DNA of 64,000 nucleotides from an uncultured delta proteobacterium (lineage in GTDB: Bacteria; Myxococcota_A; Polyangia; Polyangiales; Polyangiaceae): the NCBI GenBank assembly GCA_963782055.1, contig CAWAIF010000003.1, positions 1,344,001-1,408,000 of the forward strand, read 5' to 3'. Shown piece by piece: positions 1 to 62,462 of this stretch (position 1 is the stretch's first letter; the number at the start of each line of letters is the position of its first letter). The notes below the pieces were generated by a model. The model ran no database searches. It was given only the letters and a program-made list of their open reading frames with translations, and was not told where the DNA came from. A program made the translations under genes and the position numbers.

Positions 1-248
1 GCCTTCGGCCGGACCTCAGGTTGCGTGCCCTTCGGGCCGTCGGCCGGCCTTCGGCCGGACCTCAGGTTGCGTGCCCTTCGGGCCGTCGGCCGGCCTTCGG
101 CCGGACCTCAGGTTGCGTGCCCTTCGGGCCGTCGGCCGGCCTTCGGCCGGACCTCAGGTTGCGTGCCCTTCGGGCCGTCGGCCGGCCTTCGGCCGGACCT
201 CAGGTTGCGTGCCCTTCGGGCCGTCGGCCGGCCTTCGGCCGGACCTCA
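1..248. repeat. Tandem array of a 46-bp palindromic (REP-like) unit, ~5.4 copies, running off the left window edge
   Basis: GCCTTCGGCCGGACCTCAGGTTGCGTGCCCTTCGGGCCGTCGGCCG repeats exactly at 1, 47, 93, 139 and 185, partial at 231; no spacers. Confidence 0.95.
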
Positions 249-342
249 GCCGCGCCGGGTGGGGCTGTCCCGGGTGTCCCCCGGAGGTGTCCGGGGACAG
301 TTGACGGCGGCGCGATACCACGCAAAGTAGCTGCCTTCGCGC

Positions 343-3132: not shown

Positions 3133-3582
3133 TCAGCGCGAGGCGGTCTCGATCGGGTCGGGCAGGGGTACCGCCATCTCCCCGCGCACCTCGGCCTCGT
3201 AGCGAAGCGCGACGGCGGTGCGCGCGCAACGACCGGTGGCGTACGCCCACACCGGGTGCCCCGGGCAGACGTCGATCGCCCGCCGGAGGATCTTCACCGC
3301 GAGCCGGGTCTGCCCGCGCGCGTCTCGCCGCGGCGTGCGCGCGCACGGCGTCTGGTAGGCGCCACACGACCGGCCGTGATCACCCACGGCGTGCGGGTGG
3401 TACGCGCTCTCGTGCGCGGCGAGCACGTCGAGCAGCGCGGCGTAGAGCTGCGGCGCCTCGGTCTCGGCGGCGACCTCGGCGATCACGCGCGCGGCGCCGA
3501 GGGGCCGCGGGATGGGGAAGCCGTGGCCGTCGTGGAGCAAGGGCAGCGCGAGAAGCCATGCGAGAAGCTGTGCGGACGTCAT
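3133..3582 (-). CDS. Putative lytic-transglycosylase-like (SLT/lysozyme fold) exported protein
   Basis: Hydrophobic N-terminus; AHESAYHPHAVGDHGRSCGAYQ resembles the SLT ES...G..Q motifs. Confidence 0.55.
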   Translation of the reverse strand: MTSAQLLAWLLALPLLHDGHGFPIPRPLGAARVIAEVAAETEAPQLYAALLDVLAAHESAYHPHAVGDHGRSCGAYQTPCARTPRRDARGQTRLAVKILRRAIDVCPGHPVWAYATGRCARTAVALRYEAEVRGEMAVPLPDPIETASR

Positions 3583-6084: not shown

Positions 6085-7713
6085 ATGAGACGTCTCCTCC
6101 ATGCCCTGCTCCCGGTGGCGGTGATCGCGGCGAGCTGCGCGCCGCCCCCGGCGCCCGTGACGGCCGTCGCGGTGCCGCAGCCCGCCGCCGCCGCGTGCTC
6201 CGGCGCGCCCGAGGACGATGAGCCGCTGATCGTGGACTGGCGCGCCGACAAGCGAGCGGACCTGGAGGCCCAGCTCGCGAAGGGGCCCGTCGTCGTCGTT
6301 CACTACGACTGCGGGGGTCTGCGCGTCTTGCCGGACTGCACGGTCGACGGGACATACGCCTTCCTGGGCATCACCGAGAAGGAGCAGACCCTGCAGTTTG
6401 CGACACCGGACGAGGTTCGCGTCAACCTGCCCATCGGTGGTGCCGCGCTCGCGTCCCGTCTCACGCCGACGTTGCGGCGCGGCGGCGAGCTGGAGGTCGC
6501 CATGGCGCTCGTCGGCAAGCGTGTCAGCTCGCGCGCCTCGGTATCCCGTGCGGACCTCCACGGGGCATGTGACGGAGCGACGCACTTCGTGCGGAGCGCC
6601 ACGCTGGGCGCCTTCGCGATGGCCGCCTCCCCCGCGGCATCCACCGGCGTCGGCTCCGTCTTCGAGAGGAAGGACGCGATGGGTCGCGACGGGTCCGTCG
6701 CGGCGTGCCGCGCCTCCGCCGGCGACACCCCGCCGACCGCGTGCGCGGCCCCGCTGCGGCTGGACCTTCGGGTCATCGGGACCGGCAAGGCGGCGGCGTC
6801 GTCGCGGGAGGAAGGGGGTCGGGGGCGATGCCCGAAGGGGATGGTGCTGCTCGACGGCGGCGCCTGCGCCTCCTCCGGCAGGCGGGCGCCACACGTCTGC
6901 TACATCGACGATCCCGCCGACTGCGACGCCCAGTGCAACGCTGGCTCCATGTCGAGCTGCGCGCTGCTCGGGCGCAGCTACATGATGGGCCGCGGCGTGC
7001 CGCGCGACTTCGCCCGCGCCAAGCGGCTGCTCACCAAGGCGTGCGACGGCGGCTCCGCCCCCGGGTGCGGGAGACTCGGCGAGATCGCGCTGAGCGAGCA
7101 CGACGCGCCGACCGCGTCACGCCTGCTCGTCAAGGCGTGCCGCGCCGGCTGGGCGACCGCGTGTGCGTCGCTCGGCCACCTCCGGGTGATGGCCAACGCC
7201 CTCCCGGCGCCGGAGCTCTTCCAGCGGGCGTGCCTTGGCGGCGACGCGGAGGGGTGCGCGTCGCTGGGCCAGCTCCAGGAGAAGGGGCTCGGCGTTCCCG
7301 CGAACCCGACCATGGCCGTTCACGACTACCAGCTCGCGTGTGACGGGGCCTCGGGTATGGGGTGCGCGAACCTCGCCGCCATGGTCGACGAGGGTCGAGG
7401 CACGCCCGCCGACCCCGCGCGGGCCATCGCGATCCTCCGCGCTGCGTGCGACAAGAACCTCTCTCCGGCGTGCACGGCGCTGAGCGTCCGCTACTTCCAG
7501 GGCCACGGCGTACCGAAGGATGTCGCGAAGGGCGCCATGTTGCTCCAGAAGGCATGCGAGGGGACCGAGCGCATGCAGTGTTTCGTGCTGGCCATGCGCT
7601 ACCAGGCCGGCACCGGCGTCCCGAAGGACGCCGACAAGGCGACACGCTACTTCACGATGGCCTGCGACGCAGGCCTCGAGTTCGCGTGCAAGCAGGTCCA
7701 GAAGGGGCACTGA
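6085..7713 (+). CDS. Lipoprotein with Cys-containing Sel1-like repeats
   Basis: Lipobox IAASC; repeated G.GVP.D..KA..L..KAC.G...C units. Confidence 0.85.
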   Translation: MRRLLHALLPVAVIAASCAPPPAPVTAVAVPQPAAAACSGAPEDDEPLIVDWRADKRADLEAQLAKGPVVVVHYDCGGLRVLPDCTVDGTYAFLGITEKEQTLQFATPDEVRVNLPIGGAALASRLTPTLRRGGELEVAMALVGKRVSSRASVSRADLHGACDGATHFVRSATLGAFAMAASPAASTGVGSVFERKDAMGRDGSVAACRASAGDTPPTACAAPLRLDLRVIGTGKAAASSREEGGRGRCPKGMVLLDGGACASSGRRAPHVCYIDDPADCDAQCNAGSMSSCALLGRSYMMGRGVPRDFARAKRLLTKACDGGSAPGCGRLGEIALSEHDAPTASRLLVKACRAGWATACASLGHLRVMANALPAPELFQRACLGGDAEGCASLGQLQEKGLGVPANPTMAVHDYQLACDGASGMGCANLAAMVDEGRGTPADPARAIAILRAACDKNLSPACTALSVRYFQGHGVPKDVAKGAMLLQKACEGTERMQCFVLAMRYQAGTGVPKDADKATRYFTMACDAGLEFACKQVQKGH

Positions 7714-7907
7714 GGCCCGGCCGCAGGCCGGCCGACGGCCCGAAGGGCACGCAGACTGAGGCCCGGCCGCAGGCCGGCCGACGGCCCGAAGGGCACGCAG
7801 ACTGAGGCCCGGCCGCAGGCCGGCCGACAGCCCGAAGGGCGCGTAGACTGAGGTCCGGCCGCAGGCCGGCCGACAGCCCGAAGGGCACGTACACTGAGGT
7901 CCGGCCG
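7709..7907. repeat. Tandem array of the 46-bp unit (~4.3 copies), reverse-complement orientation to the array at 1-248
   Basis: ACTGAGGCCCGGCCGCAGGCCGGCCGACGGCCCGAAGGGCACGCAG with minor variants at 7709, 7755, 7801 and 7847, partial at 7893. Confidence 0.95.
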
Positions 7908-7970
7908 AGACGGCGGCGCTTGAGCCCGGGCACCCGGCGTCGTACCGTCTACCGCCGAGGAGAGCACTGG

Positions 7971-40195: not shown

Positions 40196-40262
40196 GCGGG
40201 AGCTCGCTTCGCTCGCTCGGGCGGGGAGGATGGTCTGGGCGCTGGTGGCGGGGTGTGGACGG
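40191..40262 (-). repeat. Partial, inverted solo copy of the terminal repeat of the DUF559 element
   Basis: Reverse complement reads GTCCACACCCCGCCACCAGCGCCCAGACCATCCTCCCCGCCCGAGCGAGCGAAGCGAGC, matching the copies at 52521, 55931 and 59468. Confidence 0.85.
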
Positions 40263-40327
40263 AAGCGTACGGGCTCGGCCGCAGGAGGCGCGCGAGAACG
40301 GTAGGTGCCTTGATGGGGGCGTCAGGG

Positions 40328-51464: not shown

Positions 51465-51896
51465 ATGCGCAACAATCACCACCCATCCCCGTCGAAGCCG
51501 CCCCTCGGCGCCGCCCTCCCCCGCGCAGCCTGCTGCGTATTCCTGCTTGCCTGCAGCACGGCGCCCGCCTCCCCCGACGCCGACGCGAGCACCGACGCCG
51601 CCGCCTGCCCCGACGCCAGGCCCGGCTGCTACTGGCTCCACTGCGGCGATCCCTTCGTCCCGGGTCTCACCTGCGTGGACGGCGCCTGGGTGTGCGACCG
51701 GGGAGCCACCGATCCGTCGCAGGGCTGCCCCTGTCCCGTCGTGGGACCCGACCCGCCGCCATATTGCTACAACTGCGACGGAGGCCGGGTAGGGGAGTGG
51801 TCCTGCAACAGCGCGACGCGCGCGTGGGAGTGCGCGGACGGCGGCTACACCACCCGCGACGCGCCCGCCTGCACCGCCGACGCCGGCGCCGACTGA
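51465..51896 (+). CDS. Cys/Trp-rich lipoprotein
   Basis: GGGAGG RBS; VFLLAC lipobox; repeated C..G.W.C units. Confidence 0.72.
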   Translation: MRNNHHPSPSKPPLGAALPRAACCVFLLACSTAPASPDADASTDAAACPDARPGCYWLHCGDPFVPGLTCVDGAWVCDRGATDPSQGCPCPVVGPDPPPYCYNCDGGRVGEWSCNSATRAWECADGGYTTRDAPACTADAGAD

Positions 51897-51911
51897 CGCG
51901 CGCGGGTCCGG

Positions 51912-52649
51912 CTCACCTCCCGCCCCTGAGCGCCGCGCGCACCATCCCCGCCGCACGCTTCGCGTTCTCCTCCACCACCTCCGCCTCGATCCGCAGCACC
52001 CGGAACCCCAGCGCCTCGATCACCGCCTGCCGCGCCGCATCCGCCTCCGCATGCCCCGGCTCCCGGTGCACCCCGCCGTCCACCTCCACCACCAGCCGCT
52101 CGCTCAGCGCGACGAAGTCCACGATGTAGCTCCCCGCCAGCACATGCTGCCGCCTGAACTTCACCCCGCCGCACCGTCGCCCCCGCAGCTCCCGCCACAG
52201 CATCGCCTCCGATCGCGTCGCCTCCTCCCGCCGCATCCGCCGCGCGTGGTGATGAAGGAAGAAGAGAGAGGGAGCTTCGTGCGGTGCCATGCCCTCCCCA
52301 CAGCGACAGAAGCGTGACAGCCGCAGTGAAGCCACCCGCGATCCCAAGGAAGGCTGGCGCGCTTCTTTCGCTCCCAGGGCGTGGCACCGCACGAAGCTCC
52401 CTCGCACGCTCCTGCGCAACCTCGAGGGGAGGCACACCGCGGGGGGAGGGCCCCGTTCCCTAGTGTTCGCCGTCGGGGAGAGCGGGCACGCGCACGGGCA
52501 TGGCCCCATCATCGTCGATAGCCCGCCTACCAGCGCCCAGACCATCCTCCCCGCCCGAGCGAGCGCGAGCGAGCGATGGGCAAGGGGAGGAGCCGCGCGC
52601 GGACCGCTCACCCGCTGCGCGTGAGCGGGAGCACGCGGCAGGCGGGGCC
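51912..52649 (-). mobile_element. Repeated ~740-bp DUF559 nuclease + structured leader unit, copy 1 (mobility inferred)
   Basis: Collinear near-identical copy at 58853-59592 with different flanks. Confidence 0.65.
51913..52290 (-). CDS. DUF559 / Vsr-like PD-(D/E)xK endonuclease (copy 1)
   Basis: ARRMRR..TRSEAMLWRELR...KFRRQHV..YIVDF.....LVVEVDGGVH......D..R...IEALGFRVLRI. Confidence 0.9.
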   Translation of the reverse strand: MAPHEAPSLFFLHHHARRMRREEATRSEAMLWRELRGRRCGGVKFRRQHVLAGSYIVDFVALSERLVVEVDGGVHREPGHAEADAARQAVIEALGFRVLRIEAEVVEENAKRAAGMVRAALRGGR

Positions 52650-53203
52650 TACCCCACCACCCTCCCCACCAGAAGCGCCAGCATCCGCTCCAGCTCCCCC
52701 GCGCTCCCCGCAGCCGCGCCGAGCCCGTCCGCCGACCGGTCGAGCAGCGTGGCGATGCGCGGCGCGAGCCGGCCGCCGACGTGACGGCAGCGAGCGAGGT
52801 GCTTCTGCAGAGAGGCGACGTACAGGGCGTGGGCCGACTCGCTCTCCTTGCCGCCGACGGCGTTCATGGCCTCGAGCAGCTCCGCGGCGTGGCGCGAGCT
52901 GTGGACGAGCGCGTACATCTCCAGGTGCTTGCTGGCGAGCGAGGCGAGCACCGCCGCCTCCGGCGACCGCGCCCGGCCCGCGGCGGCCTCCGCCCGCGCG
53001 TGCATGGCCTCTCCCAGCGTGGTGATGACGGCGGCGAAGACCGCCTCCTTGTTCGGGAAGTGGGCGTACGCCGTGGCCTTGGCGACACTGGCCTCCGCCG
53101 CGATGGCCTCCATCGAGGTGTGGCGGAAGCCGTACGCACTGAAGAGGCGTGCGGCCGCGTCCAGCAGCGCCACGCGCGTCTTGTTCGGCCTCACGGGCTT
53201 CAT
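52649..53203 (-). CDS. TetR/AcrR-family regulator
   Basis: LLDAAARLFSAYGFRHTSMEAIAAEASVAKATAYAHFPNKEAVF. Confidence 0.92.
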   Translation of the reverse strand: MKPVRPNKTRVALLDAAARLFSAYGFRHTSMEAIAAEASVAKATAYAHFPNKEAVFAAVITTLGEAMHARAEAAAGRARSPEAAVLASLASKHLEMYALVHSSRHAAELLEAMNAVGGKESESAHALYVASLQKHLARCRHVGGRLAPRIATLLDRSADGLGAAAGSAGELERMLALLVGRVVG

Positions 53204-53258
53204 CGAAGACCTTCGAGATTAGCGCCGTTCGGCGCGCCCGGGATCGCCGTCCGACGTA

Positions 53259-53287
53259 TTGAACGATCCAGGTACATATCGTATGGT
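53259..53287 (+). promoter_or_regulatory. Putative sigma70 promoter of the SDR gene (leaderless)
   Basis: TTGAAC-17 nt-TATGGT, ATG 6 nt downstream. Confidence 0.6.
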
Positions 53288-53293
53288 CCGTCC

Positions 53294-54145
53294 ATGCCCG
53301 TTTCACGCGCCGTTCTCATCACCGGGTGCTCCTCCGGCCTCGGCAAGGCCACCGCCATCCAGCTCGCGAAGAAGGGGTGGACCGTCTACGCCACCGCCCG
53401 CAAGACGGCGGACCTGGCGGAGGCGGAGGCGGCGGGCTGCCGGCTGCTCGCCCTCGACGTGACCGACGAGGCGTCGATGAAGGCCGCGGTCGCCGCCGTC
53501 GAGGTCGAGCACGGCGCCGTCGGCGTGCTCGTCAACAACGCGGGCTACTCCCAGTCGGGCGCCTTCGAGAGCGTGCCGATGGACCGCGTGCGCCGGCAGT
53601 TCGAGACCAACGTCTTCGGCCTGGTGCGCCTCACCCAGCTCGTGCTCCCCGGCATGCGCAAGCAGCGCTGGGGGCGCGTCGTGAACCTGAGCTCCATGGG
53701 CGGCAAGCTCGTCTTCCCGGGCGGCGGCTTCTACCACGCGACCAAGTACGCGGTCGAAGCGCTCAGCGACGCGCTGCGCTTCGAGGTCCGCGGCTTCGGG
53801 ATCGACGTGATCGTCATCGAGCCCGGGCTCATCAAGAGCGGCTTCGCCGAGGCGGCGGCCGCGGCGATGAAGGGCGACGGCGAGGTGGCGGAGGCCTACG
53901 CAGACTTCGACGCAGCGGTGGCGCGCTCGACGAAGGAGGTCTACGAGAAGGGCCCCCTCGCCAAACTGGCGGGCGTGCCGGAGGACGTCGCCCGGACCAT
54001 CGGCAAGGCGCTCGCGGCCAGGCGGCCGAAGACGCGATACACCGTGTCCCTCTCGGCGAAGGTGTTCCTCACGCAGCGCGCGCTGATGAGTGACCGCGCG
54101 TGGGACTGGATGATGCGCCAGTCCATGCCCTCCCCAGGCGCGTGA
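53294..54145 (+). CDS. Short-chain dehydrogenase/reductase
   Basis: TGCSSGLG, LVNNAG, YHATK. Confidence 0.95.
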   Translation: MPVSRAVLITGCSSGLGKATAIQLAKKGWTVYATARKTADLAEAEAAGCRLLALDVTDEASMKAAVAAVEVEHGAVGVLVNNAGYSQSGAFESVPMDRVRRQFETNVFGLVRLTQLVLPGMRKQRWGRVVNLSSMGGKLVFPGGGFYHATKYAVEALSDALRFEVRGFGIDVIVIEPGLIKSGFAEAAAAAMKGDGEVAEAYADFDAAVARSTKEVYEKGPLAKLAGVPEDVARTIGKALAARRPKTRYTVSLSAKVFLTQRALMSDRAWDWMMRQSMPSPGA

Positions 54146-54153
54146 CGCCCTAC

Positions 54154-54381
54154 TCAGTACGTCCCCTGGAACATGAAGCCGCCGTGGCACGCGGGCGTAC
54201 TGGCGCCGGCGTCCAGCGGCTCGCAGTCGTAATGGACCACGTCGGGCGTGCTGCAGTCCGCGCCGGAGCTGCTGCACGAGAGGACCGCCATCGCCCCCGC
54301 CGACAGGACGAGAGCCCCGGCCACGACGGCGCAGCGACAGGCGACGGACAGCGCTCCACGCGCGCCGCGACCGAAGGACAT
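54154..54381 (-). CDS. Short, possibly 3'-truncated lipoprotein
   Basis: AMAVLSC lipobox-like sequence, three further Cys, abrupt end. Confidence 0.4.
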   Translation of the reverse strand: MSFGRGARGALSVACRCAVVAGALVLSAGAMAVLSCSSSGADCSTPDVVHYDCEPLDAGASTPACHGGFMFQGTY

Positions 54382-54519
54382 TCGTGCCCTCACGAGGGGG
54401 ATACGGAAAGCGTAGCCCGGGAGCGTGCACTCGGTCCGGAAACAAACTGCGAGCCCGCGAACGCCACAAAGCCTCATTCAACCTTCTCGCTCGTGCCGAC
54501 CCCTGCCGCCCCGCATCCG

Positions 54520-54964
54520 CCTCTGGATGCCCCATGCGCATGTCGACGGGCGCCGAGGGGACGTAGATCCGGACGCTGCGCGGCAGGCTCAGCACCGCGA
54601 CGCGAGCACCGCCGCGAGCTCGGCGATGTAGCTCGGATCCCGGCCAACGCGCGCGAGCGCGCCGCGAACCGCGATCTCGATCACGTCGTCGACCGACTCG
54701 ACGCGGCCCGACGGGTCGCGAACATGGACGGGCACGAGCTGCACCGCTCCCCGCTTGGTCGCCTTGTCACACCGTAGTTGCCAGCACCACCACCCGAGCG
54801 TCGCTCGCCGAATGCCGTGCCGCCGTGCGACCTCGTCGATCGAGCCCACGCGACCGACCTCGCGAACCAGTTGCTCCCACTCCGCTCGTGAACGACGCGC
54901 TGCCATCACGGCAGACTCCACGATCACCTCGACACCCGCGAGACGTCCATCGGCGGACGGTTAC
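54520..54964 (-). mobile_element. IS66-family remnant (left end, tnpA, start of tnpB)
   Basis: Minus strand begins GTAACCGTCC at 54964 (IS66 GTAA end); tnpA-like ORF; overlapping MLSLPRSVRIYVPSAPVDMRMG (TnpB N-terminus), then similarity is lost; no tnpC. Confidence 0.8.
54589..54906 (-). CDS. tnpA: IS66 accessory protein TnpA
   Basis: AEWEQLVRE...SIDEVARRHGIRRATLGWW...LVPVHV...IEI. Confidence 0.75.
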   Translation of the reverse strand: MAARRSRAEWEQLVREVGRVGSIDEVARRHGIRRATLGWWCWQLRCDKATKRGAVQLVPVHVRDPSGRVESVDDVIEIAVRGALARVGRDPSYIAELAAVLASRC

Positions 54965-55026
54965 GCCGCAGGCGATACGCAAACCGCGAGCAGCGCGCCG
55001 CGCGCGAGGTGGCCGCATTTGGAGAC

Positions 55027-55485
55027 TCATCCCTCGCCACCTGGACGTCTTGCTATCCGCCAGTCCCGCAAAAGCTCCTCCGGGTTGTCGCCCTCGGCCC
55101 GCTCGTAGAAGTCGCGAATCTCGATCGGAAACTTACGAACGAGTCCCTGGCGCCAAATCGCCATGAACCTTCGGACCTCCACCATGCTCGCAGTCGCATC
55201 ACTATAGTCAAGTAGCGCACCAACGAGCGCATTGGATACATCCGCATTCCGAGGCCGCAGCTCCACAGCGCGGCGCGCCGCTTCCACAGCCTCTCCGGTG
55301 CGCCCCAGATCGCTTAGCAGCTCATACAGAACGAGCCATCCGGCCGCACTGGCAGGATCCAGTGCCAGCGCTCGCTGAAAGGCAGCAACAGCCTCCCCGC
55401 GCTCGCCCCGCTCACGGAGCTCGAACGCCTCCTTGAATGCCGCCTCACGCTCGCCCTCATCAGGACCCCTTGTCTCCTGCGGCAC
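55027..55485 (-). CDS. TPR-repeat protein (lower GC)
   Basis: EAVAAFQRALALDPAS...LGRTGEAVEAARRAVELRPRN; AAGGAGG RBS. Confidence 0.78.
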   Translation of the reverse strand: MPQETRGPDEGEREAAFKEAFELRERGERGEAVAAFQRALALDPASAAGWLVLYELLSDLGRTGEAVEAARRAVELRPRNADVSNALVGALLDYSDATASMVEVRRFMAIWRQGLVRKFPIEIRDFYERAEGDNPEELLRDWRIARRPGGEG

Positions 55486-55649
55486 GTGGCCCTCCTTGCC
55501 GAGTCAGCGGCAACCGTAGCATGCACTACTCCCTCACTCATCATCCAAGTCACCCGAGCTTCGTATGCCGCGTCGGCCGTTCTTCAGCTGCTGGAGCATA
55601 GGAAACGCTAGCGCGAGCGGGCGCGAAAGTTTGCGGAAGCGATCTTACG

Positions 55650-55879
55650 CGAAGTCGTGCGGTTTGCTCTCCGCGGACGATGCGCTTCGTGAGGTCGACA
55701 ACTTGATTGCAACTCTCCGAAGGGGTGCACTCCCACCGCGCCTCGATCTTGAAATCCTCTTCGCGTCCACGGGGCCGATCCAGGAGGTGAGCCTGAGCAG
55801 CGGATGGGCGCAGCCGTTTCTCGCGCTCGCGAGTCGCTTCGATGCCGCAATGGCGGAGGTCTACAGGTCGGCGTCCTGA
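55650..55879 (+). pseudogene. Probable 5'-truncated hypothetical gene
   Basis: Protein-like ADDALREVDNLIATL...LFASTGPIQEVSLSSGWAQPFLALASRFD preceded by sequence that does not look coding. Confidence 0.45.
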
Positions 55880-55930
55880 GGTCGGCGGACCCCACTCGCG
55901 GGAGAGCCCCAGTCCCCTTCGTCCTCCTCC

Positions 55931-56064
55931 GTCCACAGCCCGCCACCACCGCCCAGACCATCCTCCCCGCCCGAGCGAGCGCGAGCGAGCGATGGGCCGG
56001 GGGAGGAGCCGCGCGCGGACCGCTCACGCGCTGCGCGTTAGCGGGAGCACGCGGCAGGAGGGGC
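55931..56064. repeat. Solo copy of the terminal double-hairpin repeat of the DUF559 element
   Basis: GCCCAGACCATCCTCCCCGCCCGAGCGAGCGCGAGCGAGCGATGGGC...GGACCGCTCACGCGCTGCGCGTTAGCGGGAGCACGCGGCAGG matches 52521-52649 and 59468-59592. Confidence 0.9.
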
Positions 56065-56082
56065 GTATCATCATCTCCCCCC

Positions 56083-56838
56083 GTGTCCGCCCCTCTCCGC
56101 CCGCGCCTCCAAGTCATCGCCCTCGCCCCCCTCCTGTCCGCATGCGCCGGAACCCACGCCGCCCCCCACCCGGCCGCGCCTCCCCCCCGCCCGACCTCCG
56201 CCCAATCCGCGCCGCCCCCCGCGCCCGCGCCGGGCCATACGGAGCAGATGCCCCCCGCCTCCGCCGACGCCCACTCCGTCGGCTGCATCGGCTGGAACCC
56301 CCCCGCCCGCCGCGCCGTCTGCATCACCGGCGAGTCCTCCATCCAGCAAGGCGACAATCTGGTCGTCGAGGAGCTCGGCGGGGACGCCACCTTCGACTGG
56401 TTGAAGACCCCGGGCCAGTCCTTCGACGCCGCCCCGAGCCCCGCCGCGGTGACCCGCCTGCGCGCGCTCCTCGCGGCCGGCGCCTACACCGCGCTCCCCG
56501 CCGGCCGCACCCTCGCGCCGGGCGAGGCGATCCCCTGGCCCGGCACGCACCTCGTCTTCCGCTACGCCCGCCAGTCGCGTCCGGACGTGGAGACGGACGA
56601 GGGCTCGTGGAGCGACGTCACCGATCGCATCGAGATCGACTGCGGCGCCGGCAAGCGCACCCTGTTCGAGCGAGAGATCCAGGGCGCCGGCGACGGGCCG
56701 GCGATCCTGCGCGGCGCGGCGCAGCAGCACCTGGTGCTCGTCGAGTGGGCGCCCACCTGGGCGCTGGAGGGCGACTCCGGCGGCGCGGTGCAGGCGACGC
56801 TCATCGACACCGCCGCCGAGCGCTGCGCCGATCCCTGA
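56083..56838 (+). CDS. Hypothetical lipoprotein
   Basis: LLSAC lipobox, Pro-rich linker. Confidence 0.7.
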   Translation: MSAPLRPRLQVIALAPLLSACAGTHAAPHPAAPPPRPTSAQSAPPPAPAPGHTEQMPPASADAHSVGCIGWNPPARRAVCITGESSIQQGDNLVVEELGGDATFDWLKTPGQSFDAAPSPAAVTRLRALLAAGAYTALPAGRTLAPGEAIPWPGTHLVFRYARQSRPDVETDEGSWSDVTDRIEIDCGAGKRTLFEREIQGAGDGPAILRGAAQQHLVLVEWAPTWALEGDSGGAVQATLIDTAAERCADP

Positions 56839-56863
56839 CCGCCCGCCGCCCGCCGCCGGCCCG

Positions 56864-57346
56864 CTACTTCGAAGACGAAGGCGCCGCCGGCGCCCCCGCG
56901 AGCACCCCGCACGTCCGCACGCGCTTCACCTCCGTCTGCGTCCCGTAGGGGATGAACGTCCCGAGCACGAACACCGAATCGGCGAAGTGCCTGAGCGACT
57001 CCTGGTCCCGGAAGGCGACGCGCACCCCGCACTCGTGCTTGGGCCCCACCACCGCCGGCACGGTGAAGGTCGGATCGATCGATTGATAGAAGTGCCCCGC
57101 CCAGAACACGTCGCACTCGCCGATCGACACCGACTCGACGCCCGGCAGCCGCTCCAGCGCCTCCTTGGCGCGGTCGAACCCCTTCCGCGCGTCTGCCGCC
57201 GCCGAGGCGTCGTCGCAGGTCACGCCGGTGATCGCCAGGGATGGATGCGCGCTGCTGACCGGGGATGCAGGCGCGACGGCCGGCGGCGCCGGTGACCCAC
57301 ACGCGACGACGACGACCGAGGCCGTCGCCAGGAGTCCTCTGTGCAT
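56864..57346 (-). CDS. Hypothetical lipoprotein
   Basis: VVVAC lipobox. Confidence 0.7.
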   Translation of the reverse strand: MHRGLLATASVVVVACGSPAPPAVAPASPVSSAHPSLAITGVTCDDASAAADARKGFDRAKEALERLPGVESVSIGECDVFWAGHFYQSIDPTFTVPAVVGPKHECGVRVAFRDQESLRHFADSVFVLGTFIPYGTQTEVKRVRTCGVLAGAPAAPSSSK

Positions 57347-57577
57347 GATCGACTCCATATGGAGTCCTGCGCGCGACGTCAAAGGTGGCGCGCCGCGCAC
57401 TCGTCGTCGGCAGGGTGAAGGTGCCGCCGCCCCCTGCCTGCGGAACCGCCCCGCCCCTTAGTGGTCACCCCGCCCCCACCCGGTCCGATCCAGGACCATG
57501 ACGCCACTGTCTTGCTCTGCGGACCGCACGCCGCACCGATCGCCGCGGCACCCGCAAGAAACCGCCACCATCCCTCC

Positions 57578-57593
57578 CGGCACGGCCCTTGCG
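57578..57593 (+). promoter_or_regulatory. Putative sigma54 promoter
   Basis: CGGCACGGCCCTTGCG (GGCACG-N4-TTGC); ATG 15 nt after the -12 C. Confidence 0.55.
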
Positions 57594-57606
57594 ATGGGTA
57601 GCCACC

Positions 57607-58173
57607 ATGCGCTCCCTCCCTCTCGCCGGCTTCCTCGCCTTCGTCGTCTCCGCCACCGCCTTCGCCGCCGGCTGCGGCTGCGATCCGGGCAACAACGGAT
57701 ATCGCGCGCCCCTCGGCTTCCAGCCCTCCAGCGTCGAGGCCTTCCGCACGCCGGCGCGCTGCGGCGCGGCCAACCCGGACGCGGCGCCGGGCGACGTGCT
57801 CTCCCTCGAGCTCGTCGGCGCGACGGACGTCGCCCCGCCGTACACCGCGATGGACCTGGACGTGACGCGCAGCGCGCCGCAGGGACAGGCGGTGCCGCTG
57901 GTGGTGAGCCAGACCTCCCAGGGCACCGTCACGGCGAAGTCGACCGACGGCTCCATCCAGTTCACCTTCACCGTGGGATCGAACGCGGGCGAGATCGACT
58001 CCGCGGCGCTCGCCTCGGTGGTCGTGACCCTCGACACGATCCCGACGGCCGACGGCGAGCCCCTCGCCGCCGAGCTCCACCTCCGCTTCGACGACGGCAG
58101 CGTGCTCGATCAGTCCTACAGCGCTCCGGTGCACACCCCGCTCTTTCGCTGCGTCGCGAGCCCGACGCAGTGA
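57607..58173 (+). CDS. Hypothetical lipoprotein
   Basis: Signal peptide ending AAGC. Confidence 0.72.
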   Translation: MRSLPLAGFLAFVVSATAFAAGCGCDPGNNGYRAPLGFQPSSVEAFRTPARCGAANPDAAPGDVLSLELVGATDVAPPYTAMDLDVTRSAPQGQAVPLVVSQTSQGTVTAKSTDGSIQFTFTVGSNAGEIDSAALASVVVTLDTIPTADGEPLAAELHLRFDDGSVLDQSYSAPVHTPLFRCVASPTQ

Positions 58174-58190
58174 GCTAGACTCGGATCGCC

Positions 58191-58607
58191 ATGCTGCGGC
58201 GCGCGCTTCCCCTTCTCCTCCTGCTCGGCACCGCGTGCGGCCCGAGCACGCCGGAGGGGCAAGAGGAGGTGCTGTTGCCCTTTCCGGATGACGGCGGGGT
58301 GACGTGGGACGCGTGGGTCGGCCCCTTCGTCCGCGACTACTGCGTCCAGTGCCACGAGCCCAGCGCGCCCTGCGGCGGCAACGGGTGCCACGCGGCGGGC
58401 AATCCCGCGCTGTTCGACCTGCACGACAAGCAGGTGGCGGTCACCCTCTCGCAGACCATCCGGTGCGGCATCGCCACGACGCAGGATCCGAGCTGGAACT
58501 GCAGCGTGTCGGCGAAGAAGTTCCCGGTCGAGAACGGCGGCAACCCGCTCCCCACCGACGAGCAGCGCGCGCTGGTGGTCGGCTGGGTCGACGCCGGCTG
58601 CCCCTGA
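58191..58607 (+). CDS. Lipoprotein c-type cytochrome-like protein
   Basis: LGTAC lipobox; VTW...V.PFV..YCVQCH heme motif, second C..GCH; PTDEQRALVVGWVDAGCP. Confidence 0.7.
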   Translation: MLRRALPLLLLLGTACGPSTPEGQEEVLLPFPDDGGVTWDAWVGPFVRDYCVQCHEPSAPCGGNGCHAAGNPALFDLHDKQVAVTLSQTIRCGIATTQDPSWNCSVSAKKFPVENGGNPLPTDEQRALVVGWVDAGCP

Positions 58608-58852
58608 CGGGCGCGTTGCTGCGGCCAGATCGCGTCGGTCGTCCCGGCGCCAGCCTCCCCTTGTGAGCGCGCACCCTACCGCCTCCCCGCCGAGAGGCCC
58701 GACCCCGTACGCGGAGGCATGGGTTCGCCTTCGACGTCGCCGGCTCATACGACGGCTCTCGTTCGGGGTGGTGGGGGACGAACTGGACGGTGATGGCGAT
58801 CGGGATGGGCCCGACCCAGAGTTGGAGCCCTTGATGGCGCCGCAGGCGCCGC

Positions 58853-59592
58853 CTCACCTCTCGCCCCTGAGCGCCGCGCGCACCATCCCCACCGCCCGCT
58901 TCGCGTTCCCCTCCACCACCTCCGCCTCGATCCGCAGCACCCGGAACCCCAGCGCCTCGATCACCGCCTGCCGCGCCGCATCCGCCTCCGCATGCCCCGG
59001 CTCCCGGTGCACCCCGCCGTCCACCTCCACCACCAGCCGCTCGCTCAGCGCGACGAAGTCCACGATGTAGCTCCCCGCCAGCACATGCTGCCGCCTGAAT
59101 TTCGCGCCGCCGCACCGCCGCTCCCGCAGCTCCCGCCACAGCATCGCCTCCGACCGCGTCGCCTCCTCCCGCCGCATCCGCCGCGCATGGTGATGGAGGA
59201 AGAAGAGAGAGGGAGCTTCGTGCGGTGCCATGCCCTCCCCACAGCGACAGAAGCGTGACAGCCGCAGTGAAGCCACCCGCGATCCCAAGGAAGGCTGGCG
59301 CGCTTCTTTCGCTCCCAGGGCGTGGCACCGCACGAAGCTCCCTCGCACGTTCCTGCGCAACCTCGAGGGGAGGGACACCGCGGGGGGGGAGGGCCCTGTT
59401 CCCTACTGTTCGCCGTCGGGGGAGAGCCGGCACGGGCACGCGCGCGAACCCATCATCGTCGATAGTTCGCCACCAGCGCGCCGACCATCCTCCCCGCCCG
59501 AGCGAGCGAAGCGAGCGATGGGCAAGGGGAGGAGCCGCGCGCGGACCGCTCACGCGCTGCGCGTGAGCGGGAGCACGCGGCAGGAGGGGCCC
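58853..59592 (-). mobile_element. Repeated ~740-bp DUF559 nuclease + structured leader unit, copy 2 (mobility inferred)
   Basis: Collinear with 51912-52649. Confidence 0.65.
58854..59231 (-). CDS. DUF559 / Vsr-like endonuclease (copy 2)
   Basis: 125 aa, 5 substitutions relative to copy 1. Confidence 0.9.
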   Translation of the reverse strand: MAPHEAPSLFFLHHHARRMRREEATRSEAMLWRELRERRCGGAKFRRQHVLAGSYIVDFVALSERLVVEVDGGVHREPGHAEADAARQAVIEALGFRVLRIEAEVVEGNAKRAVGMVRAALRGER

Positions 59593-59598
59593 ATCCCC

Positions 59599-60297
59599 TC
59601 AAGGCCCCGAATAAAACACCACCCGCGCCCCGAGCACGAGCGCGTGCCGGTCAATCGACCGAGCCCCCACATAGTTGTATTCTACATCCGGCCCCAGCGC
59701 GAGATGCACGTGCTTCCCCCGCAGCACGTTCCACTCGTAGAACGCGCCCACCCCGAGGAAGGACTGCACCCCGCTCGCCCCCGGGTACGGACCCCGGCTC
59801 GCCTCGAGCTGCGCCTGTCCGATCCCGAACGCCGCCATGAACCCCAGATCGCGCAGCCACGGCGCCACGTAGAAGAGCGGAAACGCCTCCACCCGGAAGC
59901 CGAAGGCGGTGCTCATCGACGACCAGTCCCCGTTCTGGAGGAGGCCGCTCCCGCCCCAGATGCCGACGCTGAAGACATCCGCCAGCGCGGCCTCGATGAA
60001 GAGCGCGCCGGTGCCGCCGAACATGTTGCCGCCCGCGGCGTAGTACGCCGGATCGCCGATCTTGGAGGACTCGTTGGGGTAGCCGGACGCCGTGCCGAGG
60101 AGGAAGCCGCCGGTGATCCCCGCGACGAAGCCGCTGCGCCGCGTCGCAGGCGCCGCGGTGGGCTCCTCGTCGCCTTTCGAGGTGCGCGTGGCGGTGGGCG
60201 GAGGCGCGGGGGCGCGCGGGGTCTGGGGCGCCTGGGCCCGCGCCACGGCGGGTGCGAACGCGAGGGAGGCGGCGAGGAGCGCGGCAGGGCGACGCAC
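59599..60297 (-). CDS. Putative outer-membrane beta-barrel protein
   Basis: Signal peptide (ARA-Q), alternating beta strands, C-terminal LVLGARVVFY. Confidence 0.7.
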   Translation of the reverse strand: MRRPAALLAASLAFAPAVARAQAPQTPRAPAPPPTATRTSKGDEEPTAAPATRRSGFVAGITGGFLLGTASGYPNESSKIGDPAYYAAGGNMFGGTGALFIEAALADVFSVGIWGGSGLLQNGDWSSMSTAFGFRVEAFPLFYVAPWLRDLGFMAAFGIGQAQLEASRGPYPGASGVQSFLGVGAFYEWNVLRGKHVHLALGPDVEYNYVGARSIDRHALVLGARVVFYSGP

Positions 60298-60403
60298 GGC
60301 CTCGCTTCTAGCCCGAAACGGCCCCGGACGGAAACCCGCGGCGGGCCCGAAGTTGCGCCCCGCGCCGGCCAGGCGTAACTATCTCAGGGTCCGGAGGCAC
60401 CAA

Positions 60404-61495
60404 ATGGGCGACGAGCGCAAAGATTACGATCCGGCGGCGGGCGACATCACGCGCCGCAAGTTCATCGGCGGGGCGGCGGCGGCGACCGCGGCGGTCTCCC
60501 TGCTCGGCGGGGAGAAGAGCGCGCTCGCGGGGACGCACCTCCCCCCGGCCAAGCCCATGGCAGCCGCGCCACCCAAGGGCTTCGTCCCCTTCAGCGCCCC
60601 CGGCCACGTGGTGAAGGTGAGCAAGCCCGGCTCGCTGCAGCACAACCAGCTGTACCCCAAGCCGGACGACGCCAAGCTCATGCTGGAGCGCGCCCTCACC
60701 GAGCTGACGGGCAAGGCCTCGCTGGCGGAGGCGATCAAGCTCTTCGTGCACCCCGACGACAAGGTGTGCGTGAAGGTCAACGGCATCGCCAAGGCGAACA
60801 TGGCGACGAACAAGGAGCTGGTGCTCCCCTTCCTCGAGGGGATGATCGCGGCGGGCATCCCGGCGCGCAACATCACCGTGCTCGAGCAGTACTACGGCTT
60901 CCTCGCCGGGACCCGCATCACCGCGGCCAACGTGCCGGCGGGCGTCAACGTCGCGACCCACAACAACAAGGACGCGACGATGGACTTCCGGATGATCACC
61001 GGCACCGGCGTCCGGACGAAGTTCGTCCGCGTGCTGACGGAGTCGACGGCGCTCATCAACTTCGCCCTCATCAAGGATCACTCCATCTGCGGCTACACCG
61101 GCACCCTGAAGAACATGACGCACGGGTGCACCGTCAACCCGCAGGACTTCCACCTGCACCACGCCAGCCCGCAGATCGCCCTGCTCGCCGACCAGGACGT
61201 GCTCAAGAGCCGCCTCCGCCTGACGATCACCGACGCCTTCAAGGTGATGGCCCACGGCGGCCCGCTCGACAAGATGCCGCAGTACCGCAAGCCGTACGAG
61301 GCGGTCTTCACCTCCACCGACCCCGTCGCGATGGACACCATCGGCTGGGAGATCGTGGAGCAGGCGCGAAAGAAGTTCGGCCTGCGGACGCTGACGGAGG
61401 AGGGCCGCCCGCCGGCGTACATCAAGGCGGCAGGGGATTTGGGCCTGGGCGTCGCCGACCGGTCGAGGATCCGCCTGCAGGAAGTGGCGATCTAG
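60404..61495 (+). CDS. Tat-exported DUF362-family protein
   Basis: ITRRKFIG Tat motif; DKVCVKVN, IKDHSICGYTGTLKN, STDPVAMD, AGDLGLG. Confidence 0.85.
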   Translation: MGDERKDYDPAAGDITRRKFIGGAAAATAAVSLLGGEKSALAGTHLPPAKPMAAAPPKGFVPFSAPGHVVKVSKPGSLQHNQLYPKPDDAKLMLERALTELTGKASLAEAIKLFVHPDDKVCVKVNGIAKANMATNKELVLPFLEGMIAAGIPARNITVLEQYYGFLAGTRITAANVPAGVNVATHNNKDATMDFRMITGTGVRTKFVRVLTESTALINFALIKDHSICGYTGTLKNMTHGCTVNPQDFHLHHASPQIALLADQDVLKSRLRLTITDAFKVMAHGGPLDKMPQYRKPYEAVFTSTDPVAMDTIGWEIVEQARKKFGLRTLTEEGRPPAYIKAAGDLGLGVADRSRIRLQEVAI

Positions 61496-61556
61496 CTCGG
61501 CCGCACCGGGCGCTCGGGATCGACCGACCCACCCGGGTTTGTTGTACAATTCCAGC

Positions 61557-62462
61557 GTGCCCCGGGAGACCGACGAAGACACGGTGAGCATCACGCCGAT
61601 CCGTGCCGAGCCCGGCCCGCGCAGCTCACGGCCCGGCGCGGGCGAGGCGTGCCTCGTCATCATCTACGGTCAGGACCTCGGGCGCCGCATCCCGCTCGCG
61701 GGGGGGCCCTTCGTCATCGGCCGGTCCTCCAAGTCGGACTTCTGCCTGGACCAGGACTCGGTGAGCCGCCACCACGCGCGCATCGTCCGCACGCACGACG
61801 GCATCTACACCGTCTCCGACCTGGGCTCCACCAACGGCACCTACGTCAACGACACCCCCGTGAGCGAGCGCGTCCTGTCCGACGGCGATCAGATCAAGAT
61901 CGGGCGGAGCATCCTCAAGTTCATGGCGGGCGACAACATCGAGGCCAGCTACCACGAGGAGATCTACCGCCTGATGACGGTGGACGGCCTCACGCAGCTC
62001 TTCAACCGCCGCTACTTCAACGAGACCCTGGAGCGGGAGATCAACCGCTCCCGCCGCTACACCCGGGCGCTGTCGCTGGTGCTCTTCGACATCGACTACT
62101 TCAAGAAGATCAACGACGAGTTCGGCCACGTGGCGGGGGACGCGCTCCTGCGCCAGCTCGCGGTGGTGATCAAGCCGCGCCTGCGCCGGGAGGACGTGCT
62201 CGCGCGCGTGGGCGGCGAGGAGTTCGCGCTGCTGCTGCCGGAGGTGGCCCTGGATGGCGCGGCGACCACCGCGGAGAAGGTGCGCGAGACGGTGGAGTCG
62301 TCGTCGTTCGTCTTCGACGACGCGGTGATGCCGTGCACGGTGAGCCTGGGCATCGCGGAGTGGGACGGGGATCGGATGGCGGCGCCGAAGGATCTGTACG
62401 GCAAGGCGGACGAGGCGCTGTACCGCGCGAAGCAGGGGGGAAGAAACCGCGTGGAGCGCTGA
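61557..62462 (+). CDS. FHA-GGDEF diguanylate cyclase
   Basis: IGRS...SVSRHHA...DLGSTNGTYVN (FHA); DGLTQLFNRR, DIDYFKKIND, RRED I-site, GGEEF. Confidence 0.95.
   Translation: MPRETDEDTVSITPIRAEPGPRSSRPGAGEACLVIIYGQDLGRRIPLAGGPFVIGRSSKSDFCLDQDSVSRHHARIVRTHDGIYTVSDLGSTNGTYVNDTPVSERVLSDGDQIKIGRSILKFMAGDNIEASYHEEIYRLMTVDGLTQLFNRRYFNETLEREINRSRRYTRALSLVLFDIDYFKKINDEFGHVAGDALLRQLAVVIKPRLRREDVLARVGGEEFALLLPEVALDGAATTAEKVRETVESSSFVFDDAVMPCTVSLGIAEWDGDRMAAPKDLYGKADEALYRAKQGGRNRVER

Follow-up and report, generated by a model that had tools for sequence, protein, structure and literature searches.

A multi-copy family of DUF559 nuclease genes with triplex-type ends, and its possible spread through a folded single strand

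The window analysed here (a stretch of 64,000 nucleotides from an uncultured delta proteobacterium of the Polyangiaceae) contains two closely similar units, each made up of a small nuclease gene of the DUF559 family and a structured non-coding part. The question raised by this locus is how such units spread, and what part the nuclease plays in it. We lean towards the explanation that they belong to a multi-copy family which spreads without a transposase, by folding of the antisense strand, nicking by DUF559 and copying by host repair.

The window units and their family

The two units (approximately 51908–52650 and 58849–59593; features in Table 1) are collinear and 94.9% identical across 751 bases, with unrelated flanks, which bears out an earlier note, made from the sequence alone, that described two collinear copies of about 740 bp with different flanks. 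Each contains a minus-strand ORF of 125 aa that matches PF04480 in a Pfam scan (E 8e-29 and 1e-28; 100 bits vs a cut-off of 20.6), and the two proteins are 96% identical, so that both the assignment to DUF559 and the five amino acid differences that had been counted are confirmed. Likewise, both copies lie directly behind the stop codon of a co-oriented gene (outer boundary 0 and 8 nt past it), and a Pfam scan of the 15 neighbouring ORFs found, as had been claimed, no intact transposase, recombinase or reverse transcriptase. A weak HTH_Tnp_1 remnant (54589–54927, E 0.0012, below the cut-off) is located between the copies. The solo ends noted nearby are also present, both gene-less and one of them truncated and inverted; the latter faces three ends on its right, with a variable region between. 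The reported absence of terminal inverted repeats holds for the two window copies, but not for many other members of the family, which are bracketed by two inverted ends.

Table 1. Features of the two units and of nearby ends, in window coordinates
Feature	Position	Strand	Remarks
Truncated end, inverted	40202–40271	-	Directly after co-oriented stop
DUF559 (Vsr-like) nuclease gene, copy 1	51913–52290	-	125 aa; PF04480 match
Rod hairpin, copy 1	52268–52403	+	Conserved mismatches (T·G, G·A) in inner stem, read on + strand
Rod arms, copy 1	52268–52290; 52381–52403		First ~8 codons (antisense); complement
Variable linker, rod to end module, copy 1	52404–52545	not assigned	
End module, copy 1	52546–52648	+	6/7 canonical triads (variant); long hairpins in both loops
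Tracts of end module, copy 1	52546–52552; 52584–52590; from 52641		Pyrimidine; purine; mirror third strand
Host TetR gene, 3' end	52649–52890	-	C-poor skew, from four-fold site counts
Gene-less end plus linker	55880–56064 (end ~55935–56064)	+	Adjoins start region of divergent gene
Tracts of gene-less end	55962; 56000; 56057		
DUF559 nuclease gene, copy 2	58854–59231	-	125 aa; PF04480 match
Rod hairpin, copy 2	59209–59344	+	
End module, copy 2	59489–59590	+	Mirror repeat, 7/7 triads
Tracts of end module, copy 2	59489–59495; 59526–59532; from 59583		
Host gene 59599–60297, 3' end	59599–59840	-	C-poor skew

Where the earlier note spoke of two copies, the family proved to be far larger. The end module has 64 matches genome-wide, 18 leading into a DUF559 start and 46 others, and an end is located at most 420 nt upstream of all 18 placed starts; PF04480 itself has 16 matches in the genome. 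The same layout is found in 6/6 congeners, with 8–23 DUF559 matches per genome. This division into gene-linked and other ends supports the proposed family of autonomous and non-autonomous elements, whose parts are the nuclease gene, the rod hairpin and an end of triplex type. Empty alleles were sought in relatives and found: 17/17 usable congener insertion sites are empty in this genome, the congener elements sit between genes that are 1–10 bp apart here (four cases inspected), and the end at the copy 2 site is absent from 5/5 congeners. No target duplication was visible in six filled/empty comparisons, at an identity of approximately 75% between species that leaves exact junctions unreadable. 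A metagenome scan gave no close strain (best identity 54%), hence no strain-level empty allele, and a viral scan gave 59 distant relatives. The window copies are mutually closest and only 7 kb apart, as a local duplication without wider meaning would have them, but their flanks are unrelated rather than extended and shared, and dozens of dispersed copies and the empty alleles leave that reading with scarcely any credence; local copying may be the origin of this particular pair.

The association of gene and end extends to other phyla. Among 70 non-Myxococcota DUF559 loci an outward-facing triplex was found upstream in 47, downstream in 52 and on both sides in 45, while distant windows, used as a control, gave two triplex matches. 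The earlier note had allowed that DUF559 homologues elsewhere might lack the structured region; the structure is conserved in them. In Escherichia coli, TM_ECO lies 170 nt after ycjD, whose product is a DUF559 protein 43% identical to that of the window, and ycjD has one triplex. The relative G036 has 62 TM-like hairpins (5 in the control) together with a marginal DUF559 match only. A loose end-pattern search of 41 genomes was above control in all six congeners and at noise level in most others, and so provides no test of co-occurrence. These distributions also bear on the suggestion that DUF559 does no more than ordinary very-short-patch repair and that the hairpins are unrelated repeats gathered nearby. 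The Caulobacter DUF559 protein VsrA has been proposed to act in T:G mismatch repair, without direct biochemical proof (PMC12907096), which lends this some support, but the tie of every placed start to an end, the outward polarity fixed in 45/70 distant loci, the copy number and a rod that overlaps and covaries with the coding sequence all oppose it. The fixed gene–end association largely refutes ordinary repair, and we consider it very improbable.

Another possibility concerns the mover. The outer boundary of the elements is fixed just past stop codons and the inner ends of gene-less copies are ragged. Ends cluster (25 neighbours within 15 kb vs a simulated mean of 7.4) and mostly face inward around variable regions (12 inward-facing pairs, 1 back-to-back). 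The genome contains 20 matches to IS91-type Y2 transposases and IS91-like remnants follow two copies, so that another enzyme could move the units; either these rolling-circle transposases or plain recombination between ends would then be responsible, with DUF559 a passenger, or else a domesticated nuclease directed against incoming single-stranded DNA, which it would cut at the repeats as SsnA of Neisseria does; SsnA lowers transformation at its repeats (PMC11893778). The C3 copies at 2.260 and 2.267 Mb have the pattern of rolling-circle capture, the end being bordered externally by a piece of a uvrA-like gene (424 and 320 nt) and the opposite side by an IS91-like remnant. There is one clean case of flank co-duplication (150 nt); an RHS pair is confounded by long paralogy and the uvrA-like cases by the IS91-like remnants. 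However, IS91 sequence is absent beside most copies, triplex–gene–triplex loci occur in many phyla, and the flanks inspected there show no further mobile gene. Nor would a tamed host function need 8–23 scattered copies per genome, of which about a third are broken. A mover other than DUF559 seems to us rather unlikely, though it retains some weight.

Folding of the non-coding part and the strand involved

The 406-nt non-coding stretch of the window unit has a fold z of -5.35, equalled by 0/100 shuffles. Its rod hairpin, which the earlier note had recognized, is present in both copies and is 91% paired, with 31/50 compensatory pairs (0/500 shuffles). The rod overlaps the coding sequence and covaries with the first codons: the far arm matches them at 20–24 of 24 positions in 42/58 listed start regions, the remainder being mostly mis-assigned starts or other lineages, and random starts reach at most 20/24. 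Changes in the rod are overwhelmingly two-sided (316 cells vs approximately 7 one-sided), i.e. almost no G·U intermediates occur on the mRNA strand, and the conserved mismatches, which on that strand are C·A and C·T, become T·G and G·A when the opposite strand is read. For the terminal double hairpin described previously, a better interpretation is a class II purine-motif triplex of BoxC/PIT/TM type whose two loops it represents. Seven of seven antiparallel triads are present in 43/53 of the genome's own ends and 31/33 congener ends, as against 4.7 across lineages and 4.4–5.0 in the parallel register, and the triplex tracts show mirror covariation. The DNA mini-hairpin motif GCGN(N)AGC (PMC13037366) caps the ends on the antisense strand in 52/58 cases and on the sense strand in one. 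Loop lengths in the window copies are approximately 31 and 50 nt, outside the TM_ECO consensus (3–6 nt, 3 nt).

The earlier note had suggested that the nuclease works with an RNA. Under this explanation the rod would hide the start codon and ribosome site of read-through transcripts, and guidance or regulation of the nuclease would fall to the structured RNA. It accords with the way in which the far arm follows the first codons across very different N-termini, with the location of elements directly behind co-oriented genes (39/56 anchors), with a promoter and terminator scan of 51800–52800 in which neither was found, in particular no sigma-70-type promoter, and with the structural likeness of DUF559 to RAP-type proteins. 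Nevertheless, the mirror covariation of the triplex, the antisense mini-hairpins and the scarcity of one-sided rod changes disfavour an RNA partner and point to single-stranded DNA. The antisense strand is also the one on which the conserved mismatches make sense, RNA does not form purine-motif triplexes according to PMC4666352, an Rfam search of the non-coding part gave no family above threshold (one chance-level match below it), and a variable guide segment was not seen. We judge an RNA function improbable, although the rod may have a second role, keeping the start codon of the mRNA masked. The features of the non-coding part suggest antisense-strand DNA in single-stranded form rather than a guide RNA, and we infer that its structures form in cells. 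Holder et al. reported no stable triplex in double-stranded DNA, nor any by in vivo footprinting.

If a single strand does fold in this way, DUF559 would have candidate cutting sites at the foot of the triplex and at the rod's conserved T·G and G·A mismatches. Residues E28, D58, H75 and D84 are invariant in 15 aligned family sequences, and the catalytic-type residues are intact. The fold matches 3hrl (the best Foldseek match), I-Bth0305I and Vsr; for the EDxHD homing endonuclease 3r3p, the profile comparison gave E 8e-5 and the structure comparison 2e-4. The fold also matches mitoribosomal and FASTKD4 RAP-module chains, which leaves room for an RNA substrate. Unlike Vsr, a single gene coupled to the cytosine methyltransferase Dcm, the nuclease gene is multi-copy, and a scan of 15 window ORFs showed no methyltransferase. 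Selection on the gene is only weakly purifying (median dN/dS 0.63, 44 pairs) and 6/17 copies are broken.

Loss of C in adjoining host genes

Host genes that abut an end have C at 17% of four-fold sites in their last 10 codons vs 48% in controls, a deficit that fades by approximately 80 codons (about 240 nt), and in 17/17 pairs C was lower than in the end-free orthologue. In the window, the last 30 codons of the TetR gene have C at 2 and G at 19 four-fold sites (gene body: C 30, G 34), and those of the gene at 59599–60297 have C 2 and G 15, where its five congener orthologues without an end have C 8–10 and G 6–8. The skew is seen for ends on both strands, in a chromosome with no clear skew of its own by which to assign replication direction; outside this lineage it is weak (0.13, first 50 nt only). 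Convergent transcription was rejected as a cause, there being no such skew in 2117 convergent control genes or 21 inner-side genes, and an intrinsic property of the host genes is ruled out by the paired orthologues. Nor is a simple ongoing C to G bias supported: within the gene, C-to-G changes are not in excess among the recent single ones. Most likely, the skew is a footprint left where the antisense strand is time and again exposed or synthesized anew, whether by a bias of that resynthesis or because selection favours a strand that is poor in G and folds badly. This one-sided loss of C is a new observation of the present work, and a literature search aimed at it found no description.

Related systems, proposed mechanism and significance

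REP/REPIN–RAYT and IS200/IS605 are hairpin-ended single-strand elements in which an autonomous gene is accompanied by many non-autonomous repeats at gene ends, and their movers are HUH Y1 transposases, which join strands. The present family shares this hairpin-ended, autonomous/non-autonomous plan, but has a hydrolytic nuclease fold, and the Y1 transposase PF01797 had 0 matches in the 97% complete genome (controls matched 6/14). OMEGA systems (TnpB/IscB) have a RuvC nuclease and a guide RNA; here the Pfam scan of the window ORFs gave no such domain and Rfam no match above threshold. The BoxC/PIT/TM_ECO repeats (PMC4666352) resemble the ends described here in their pyrimidine tract, complementary purine tract and mirror purine third strand, and are likewise intergenic, arranged in inverted pairs and tied to local instability; their loops are short, whereas here both take the form of long hairpins that carry DNA mini-hairpin caps. 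That report describes no mobility gene near TM_ECO, and its main text mentions neither ycjD nor DUF559 (PMC4666352); our literature search found no paper tying DUF559 to repeats of this type. NTS–ssnA–NTS, as far as the available text of PMC11893778 goes, is also a small single-domain nuclease with its own flanking hairpin repeats, many gene-less repeats and no transposase, which its authors suggest to be a domesticated mobile element. However, SsnA is a GIY-YIG nuclease, whereas Pfam and structure matches place the present one in the Vsr-like PD-(D/E)xK class; NTS repeats are 20–50-nt hairpins rather than triplexes, the same text describes no start-codon rod or flank skew, and cutting is proven for SsnA but predicted for DUF559. 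EDxHD homing endonucleases (I-Bth0305I, PMC3239194) and Vsr share the catalytic fold and the E-D-H-D residues, but the present protein is a 125-aa single domain without separate N-terminal DNA-binding repeats, and the family occupies many unrelated intergenic sites rather than one allele, and neither an intron nor an intein hosts it. Similarly short, structured intergenic repeats with unknown movers are the bacterial MITEs, among them Caulobacter CIR (PMC2229807). The present family differs in encoding its own protein, and its window copies lack terminal inverted repeats and a detectable target duplication, though other members are bracketed by two inverted ends.

Our current working hypothesis is that the strand antisense to the gene would fold once single-stranded, that DUF559 would nick this folded DNA, and that host repair enzymes would then copy the whole unit, or the end alone, to new gene boundaries. 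It supposes that DUF559 cuts the folded structures and that this cutting drives spread, so that the units would be mobilized by DUF559 itself. A more far-reaching form, in which such transposase-free elements are widespread and a 125-aa Vsr-like nickase recognizes its own triplex and mismatch hairpin in single-stranded DNA for host repair to copy, we regard as possible but doubtful.

DUF559 is a very common family without a defined substrate, and the bacterial triplex repeats (BoxC/PIT/TM), familiar since the 1990s, still pose the question of how they arose and spread. The family offers a concrete enzyme–substrate pair within reach of oligonucleotide assays, as do YcjD and TM_ECO in E. coli. 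If the more far-reaching form is true, DUF559 would be the long-missing mover of these repeats and would act as a single-strand nuclease specific for structure. The element would also be a local, one-sided and strand-specific rewriter of approximately 240 nt of the neighbouring gene. Such rewriting of synonymous sites is a large effect; it would be a measurable footprint of the element's action and would offer a way of finding old or lost insertions.

Distribution and placement of the DUF559 units

The earlier note had described two collinear units between different flanks, and this description holds: 751 bases align at 94.9% identity, the flanks are unrelated, and each unit carries a minus-strand DUF559 gene of 125 aa (Pfam scan), whose product has its nearest named relatives in Polyangiaceae records, so that the host is probably a myxobacterium belonging to this family. 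The genome (7.6 Mb, G+C 72%) contains 16 matches to PF04480 and 64 to a profile of the end module, the structured outer terminus of the unit; removal of two that were mis-anchored or spurious and six without an anchor left 56 anchored ends. All 18 DUF559 starts that could be placed have an end no more than 420 nt upstream. Eleven of the 17 coding copies examined are full length (ten fit the pattern and one missed it by a single residue) and six are broken, with a median dN/dS of 0.63 across 44 pairs of copies. Ends have a sharp outer boundary; in gene-less ends, which lack DUF559, the inner boundary is ragged. At 39 of the 56 anchored ends the stop codon of a co-oriented gene lies within 28 nt before the end, the spacer being 70% G and 23% A. 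Ends are clustered: 25 neighbour pairs lie less than 15 kb apart, where simulation gives 7.4 on average and 17 at most. These 25 comprise 12 facing, 12 tandem and one back-to-back pair. At least two of three facing pairs that lack DUF559 (see the table) contain an unrelated cargo gene. A variable region of the window, with few orthologous matches in the five congeners compared, lies between an inverted truncated end at 40.2 kb and three ends in tandem on its right. The differing orientation of a gene's neighbour in congeners points to an inversion breakpoint near copy 2.

Coordinates of the units and associated features (C3, contig of this genome; L, DUF559 loci from other genomes)
Feature	Location	Observation
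Copy 1	window ~51908–52650	
Copy 2	window ~58849–59593	
Tandem repeat of 46 nt, two arrays	window 1–295 and 7663–7938	opposite orientation, ~90% complementary, 7.5 kb apart
Insertion-sequence remnant	window 54500–54960	between the two copies; weak HTH_Tnp_1 match; presumably IS66-like
Gene near copy 2	window 59599–60297 (region 59599–62460)	divergent from neighbour here, co-oriented with it in congeners
Facing end pairs	C3 1154402–1155341, 5595708–5596854, 5668921–5669647	enclose 0.7–1.1 kb without DUF559
Compact classical TM-type triplex	C3 1436250–1436300	adjoins a truncated long end; both forms in one genome
Short GC-clamped palindromes	C3 2260030, 2267435, 4287409; L002, L003, L004, L007, L020, L071	AT-rich centres, often doubled; second, unrelated family directly past DUF559 stop
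Two distinct DUF559 subfamilies	L009, L013, L015, L016, L017 (congeners G004, G006)	tail to tail, overlapping at stop codons, end on each side
Long hairpin	L151 (E. coli) 3260–3305	over ycjD start region, resembling the rod

DUF559 matches occur in all six congeners (8–23 in each), and at least one was found in 24 of the 41 genomes searched. The order of end, linker, rod (a long hairpin overlapping the DUF559 start) and gene is kept in congeners; two of them frequently show a tail-to-tail fusion of the halves, and the resulting unit is bounded by an end on both sides. Empty alleles, which the earlier note proposed to look for, exist: in four of six inspected cases the two genes that border an element in a relative stand just 1–10 bp apart here, the gap being ~65–150 bp in the remaining two, and the gene beside copy 2 has no end-like sequence in any of five congeners; junction details and target duplications are unreadable because the species compared are ~75% identical in DNA.

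Structure of the end module, rod and nuclease

The end is a motif of triplex type. Its antisense strand, relative to the gene, comprises a pyrimidine tract, a hairpin, the complementary purine tract, a second hairpin and a mirror purine tract. Most ends have all seven of seven canonical antiparallel triads (43 of 53 own, 31 of 33 from congeners), the parallel register giving 4.4–5.0. The interrupting A of the tracts sits at a different position in each of two lineages and shifts in both strands, so that cross-lineage pairing falls to 4.7; this covariation rests on few evolutionary changes, since copies related by descent are not independent observations. On the antisense strand, GCGNAGC or GCGNNAGC caps the first loop in 52 of 58 own copies and in 13 of 19 from congeners; the other strand carries such a cap in one of each set. 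Such mini-hairpins are described as very stable as DNA and far less so as RNA (PMC13037366), and RNA as not forming purine-motif triplexes (PMC4666352).

Beyond the Myxococcota, 70 DUF559 loci (80 returned less 10 that were myxococcal or deltaproteobacterial) were examined for compact triplex motifs that point outward: 47 have them upstream, 52 downstream and 45 in both places, and control windows far from these loci gave two matches. In E. coli a TM_ECO motif of the same polarity lies 170 nt downstream of ycjD, whose product is 43% identical to the window protein. One relative (G036) has 62 TM-like hairpins against five control matches, and only a marginal DUF559 match, in a long open frame. 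At several loci (L075, L084, L088, L095 and L104, from Bacteroidota, and L085, L089, L091 and L093) a triplex–DUF559–triplex unit apparently lies inside a housekeeping gene, the flanks on either side reading as one continuous gene; these units are possibly in-frame insertions. The host gene in five loci is, from peptide motifs, presumably isoleucyl-tRNA synthetase-like.

One arm of the rod is formed by the first codons of the DUF559 gene and the other lies 102–124 nt upstream. The arms match at 20–24 of 24 positions in 42 of the 58 start regions listed, the maximum among 2000 random ATGs being 20. Across 41 aligned copies 91% of cells are paired and both partners vary in 31 of 50 pairs, values that are not approached by any shuffle or slid register; two-sided changes number 316 against ~7 one-sided, a ratio unlike that of typical RNA stems. 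The conserved mismatches of the rod read as C·A and C·T in the mRNA and hence as T·G and G·A in the antisense strand; in roughly one third of the copies the T·G position is normally paired and only G·A is retained. The T·G mismatch is of the Vsr substrate type (PMC3239194), making the rod a candidate cut site; in mRNA, it would also bury the start codon.

Residues E28, D58, H75 and D84 of the protein are invariant among 15 aligned sequences and, judged by position, appear to match the E-D-H-D type site of Vsr-like enzymes. The predicted structure is confident (pLDDT 85), and its matches include 3hrl, I-Bth0305I, several mitoribosomal chains, Vsr and the RAP module of FASTKD4.

Composition of host genes beyond the end

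Four-fold sites in the last 10 codons of the 39 genes that stop at an end module contain 17% C and 78% G, whereas those of controls contain 48% and 42% (p 1e-22; gene calls from a purpose-made codon model), composition being normal again at 81–100 codons; 29 of the 39 have no more than 25% C over the last 30 codons, versus 322 of 5875 controls. The skew is present in all eight four-fold codon families, NNY codons shift to T (32% versus 10% over the last 10 codons), and A becomes rare in NNR codons (2 of 202). It was seen neither in convergent control genes nor in genes on the inner side of ends. Where the host gene is oppositely oriented the skew follows the element's strand (C:G 196:84 versus ~1.17, a noisier figure because gene starts are approximate), and it accompanies gene-less and full ends alike (C 22% and 15%). 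Congener genes beside an end have 19% C versus 56% in their end-free orthologs here, with lower values in 17 of 17 usable pairs (eight homolog pairs with low identity or unaligned ends were left out, as were ends without a co-oriented frame or homolog).

Some findings speak against a simple reading of the skew: among 17 ends that no co-oriented stop precedes, three lack it in the first 100 nt, and it is weak in other phyla; the DUF559 genes of this genome are evenly G-rich and those of congeners are not; and recent single changes inside the DUF559 gene had no bias to G. A duplication of one end took in 150 nt of the adjoining outer flank, so copying can extend past the end. The genome encodes the error-prone DnaE2, which nothing ties to the skew; in Caulobacter, such enzymes are responsible for G:C to C:G changes (PMC3901139).

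A proposed mechanism and its relation to known systems

It is very probable that these units form a mobile family with a DNA structure tied to DUF559; the remainder of the mechanism we infer. With modest confidence we favour a transposase-free element, which would act as folded single-stranded DNA, be nicked by its own DUF559 nuclease and be copied by host repair. As the main rival we consider movement by IS91-type enzymes, of which the genome has 20 matches; DUF559 would then play a role like that of SsnA. The layout of the DUF559 element works like that of NTS-ssnA and REP-RAYT, although it is a member of neither. Among the papers listed by a literature search on DUF559, no title or abstract is about repeats or mobility of such kind. 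Neither a connection of DUF559/YcjD with triplex repeats nor the skew came up in the literature searched, which takes in a minority of subscription papers; the supplement of PMC4666352, which gives the genes on either side of TM_ECO, may include ycjD. Apparently undescribed in the literature searched, the DUF559-triplex element is real and widespread.
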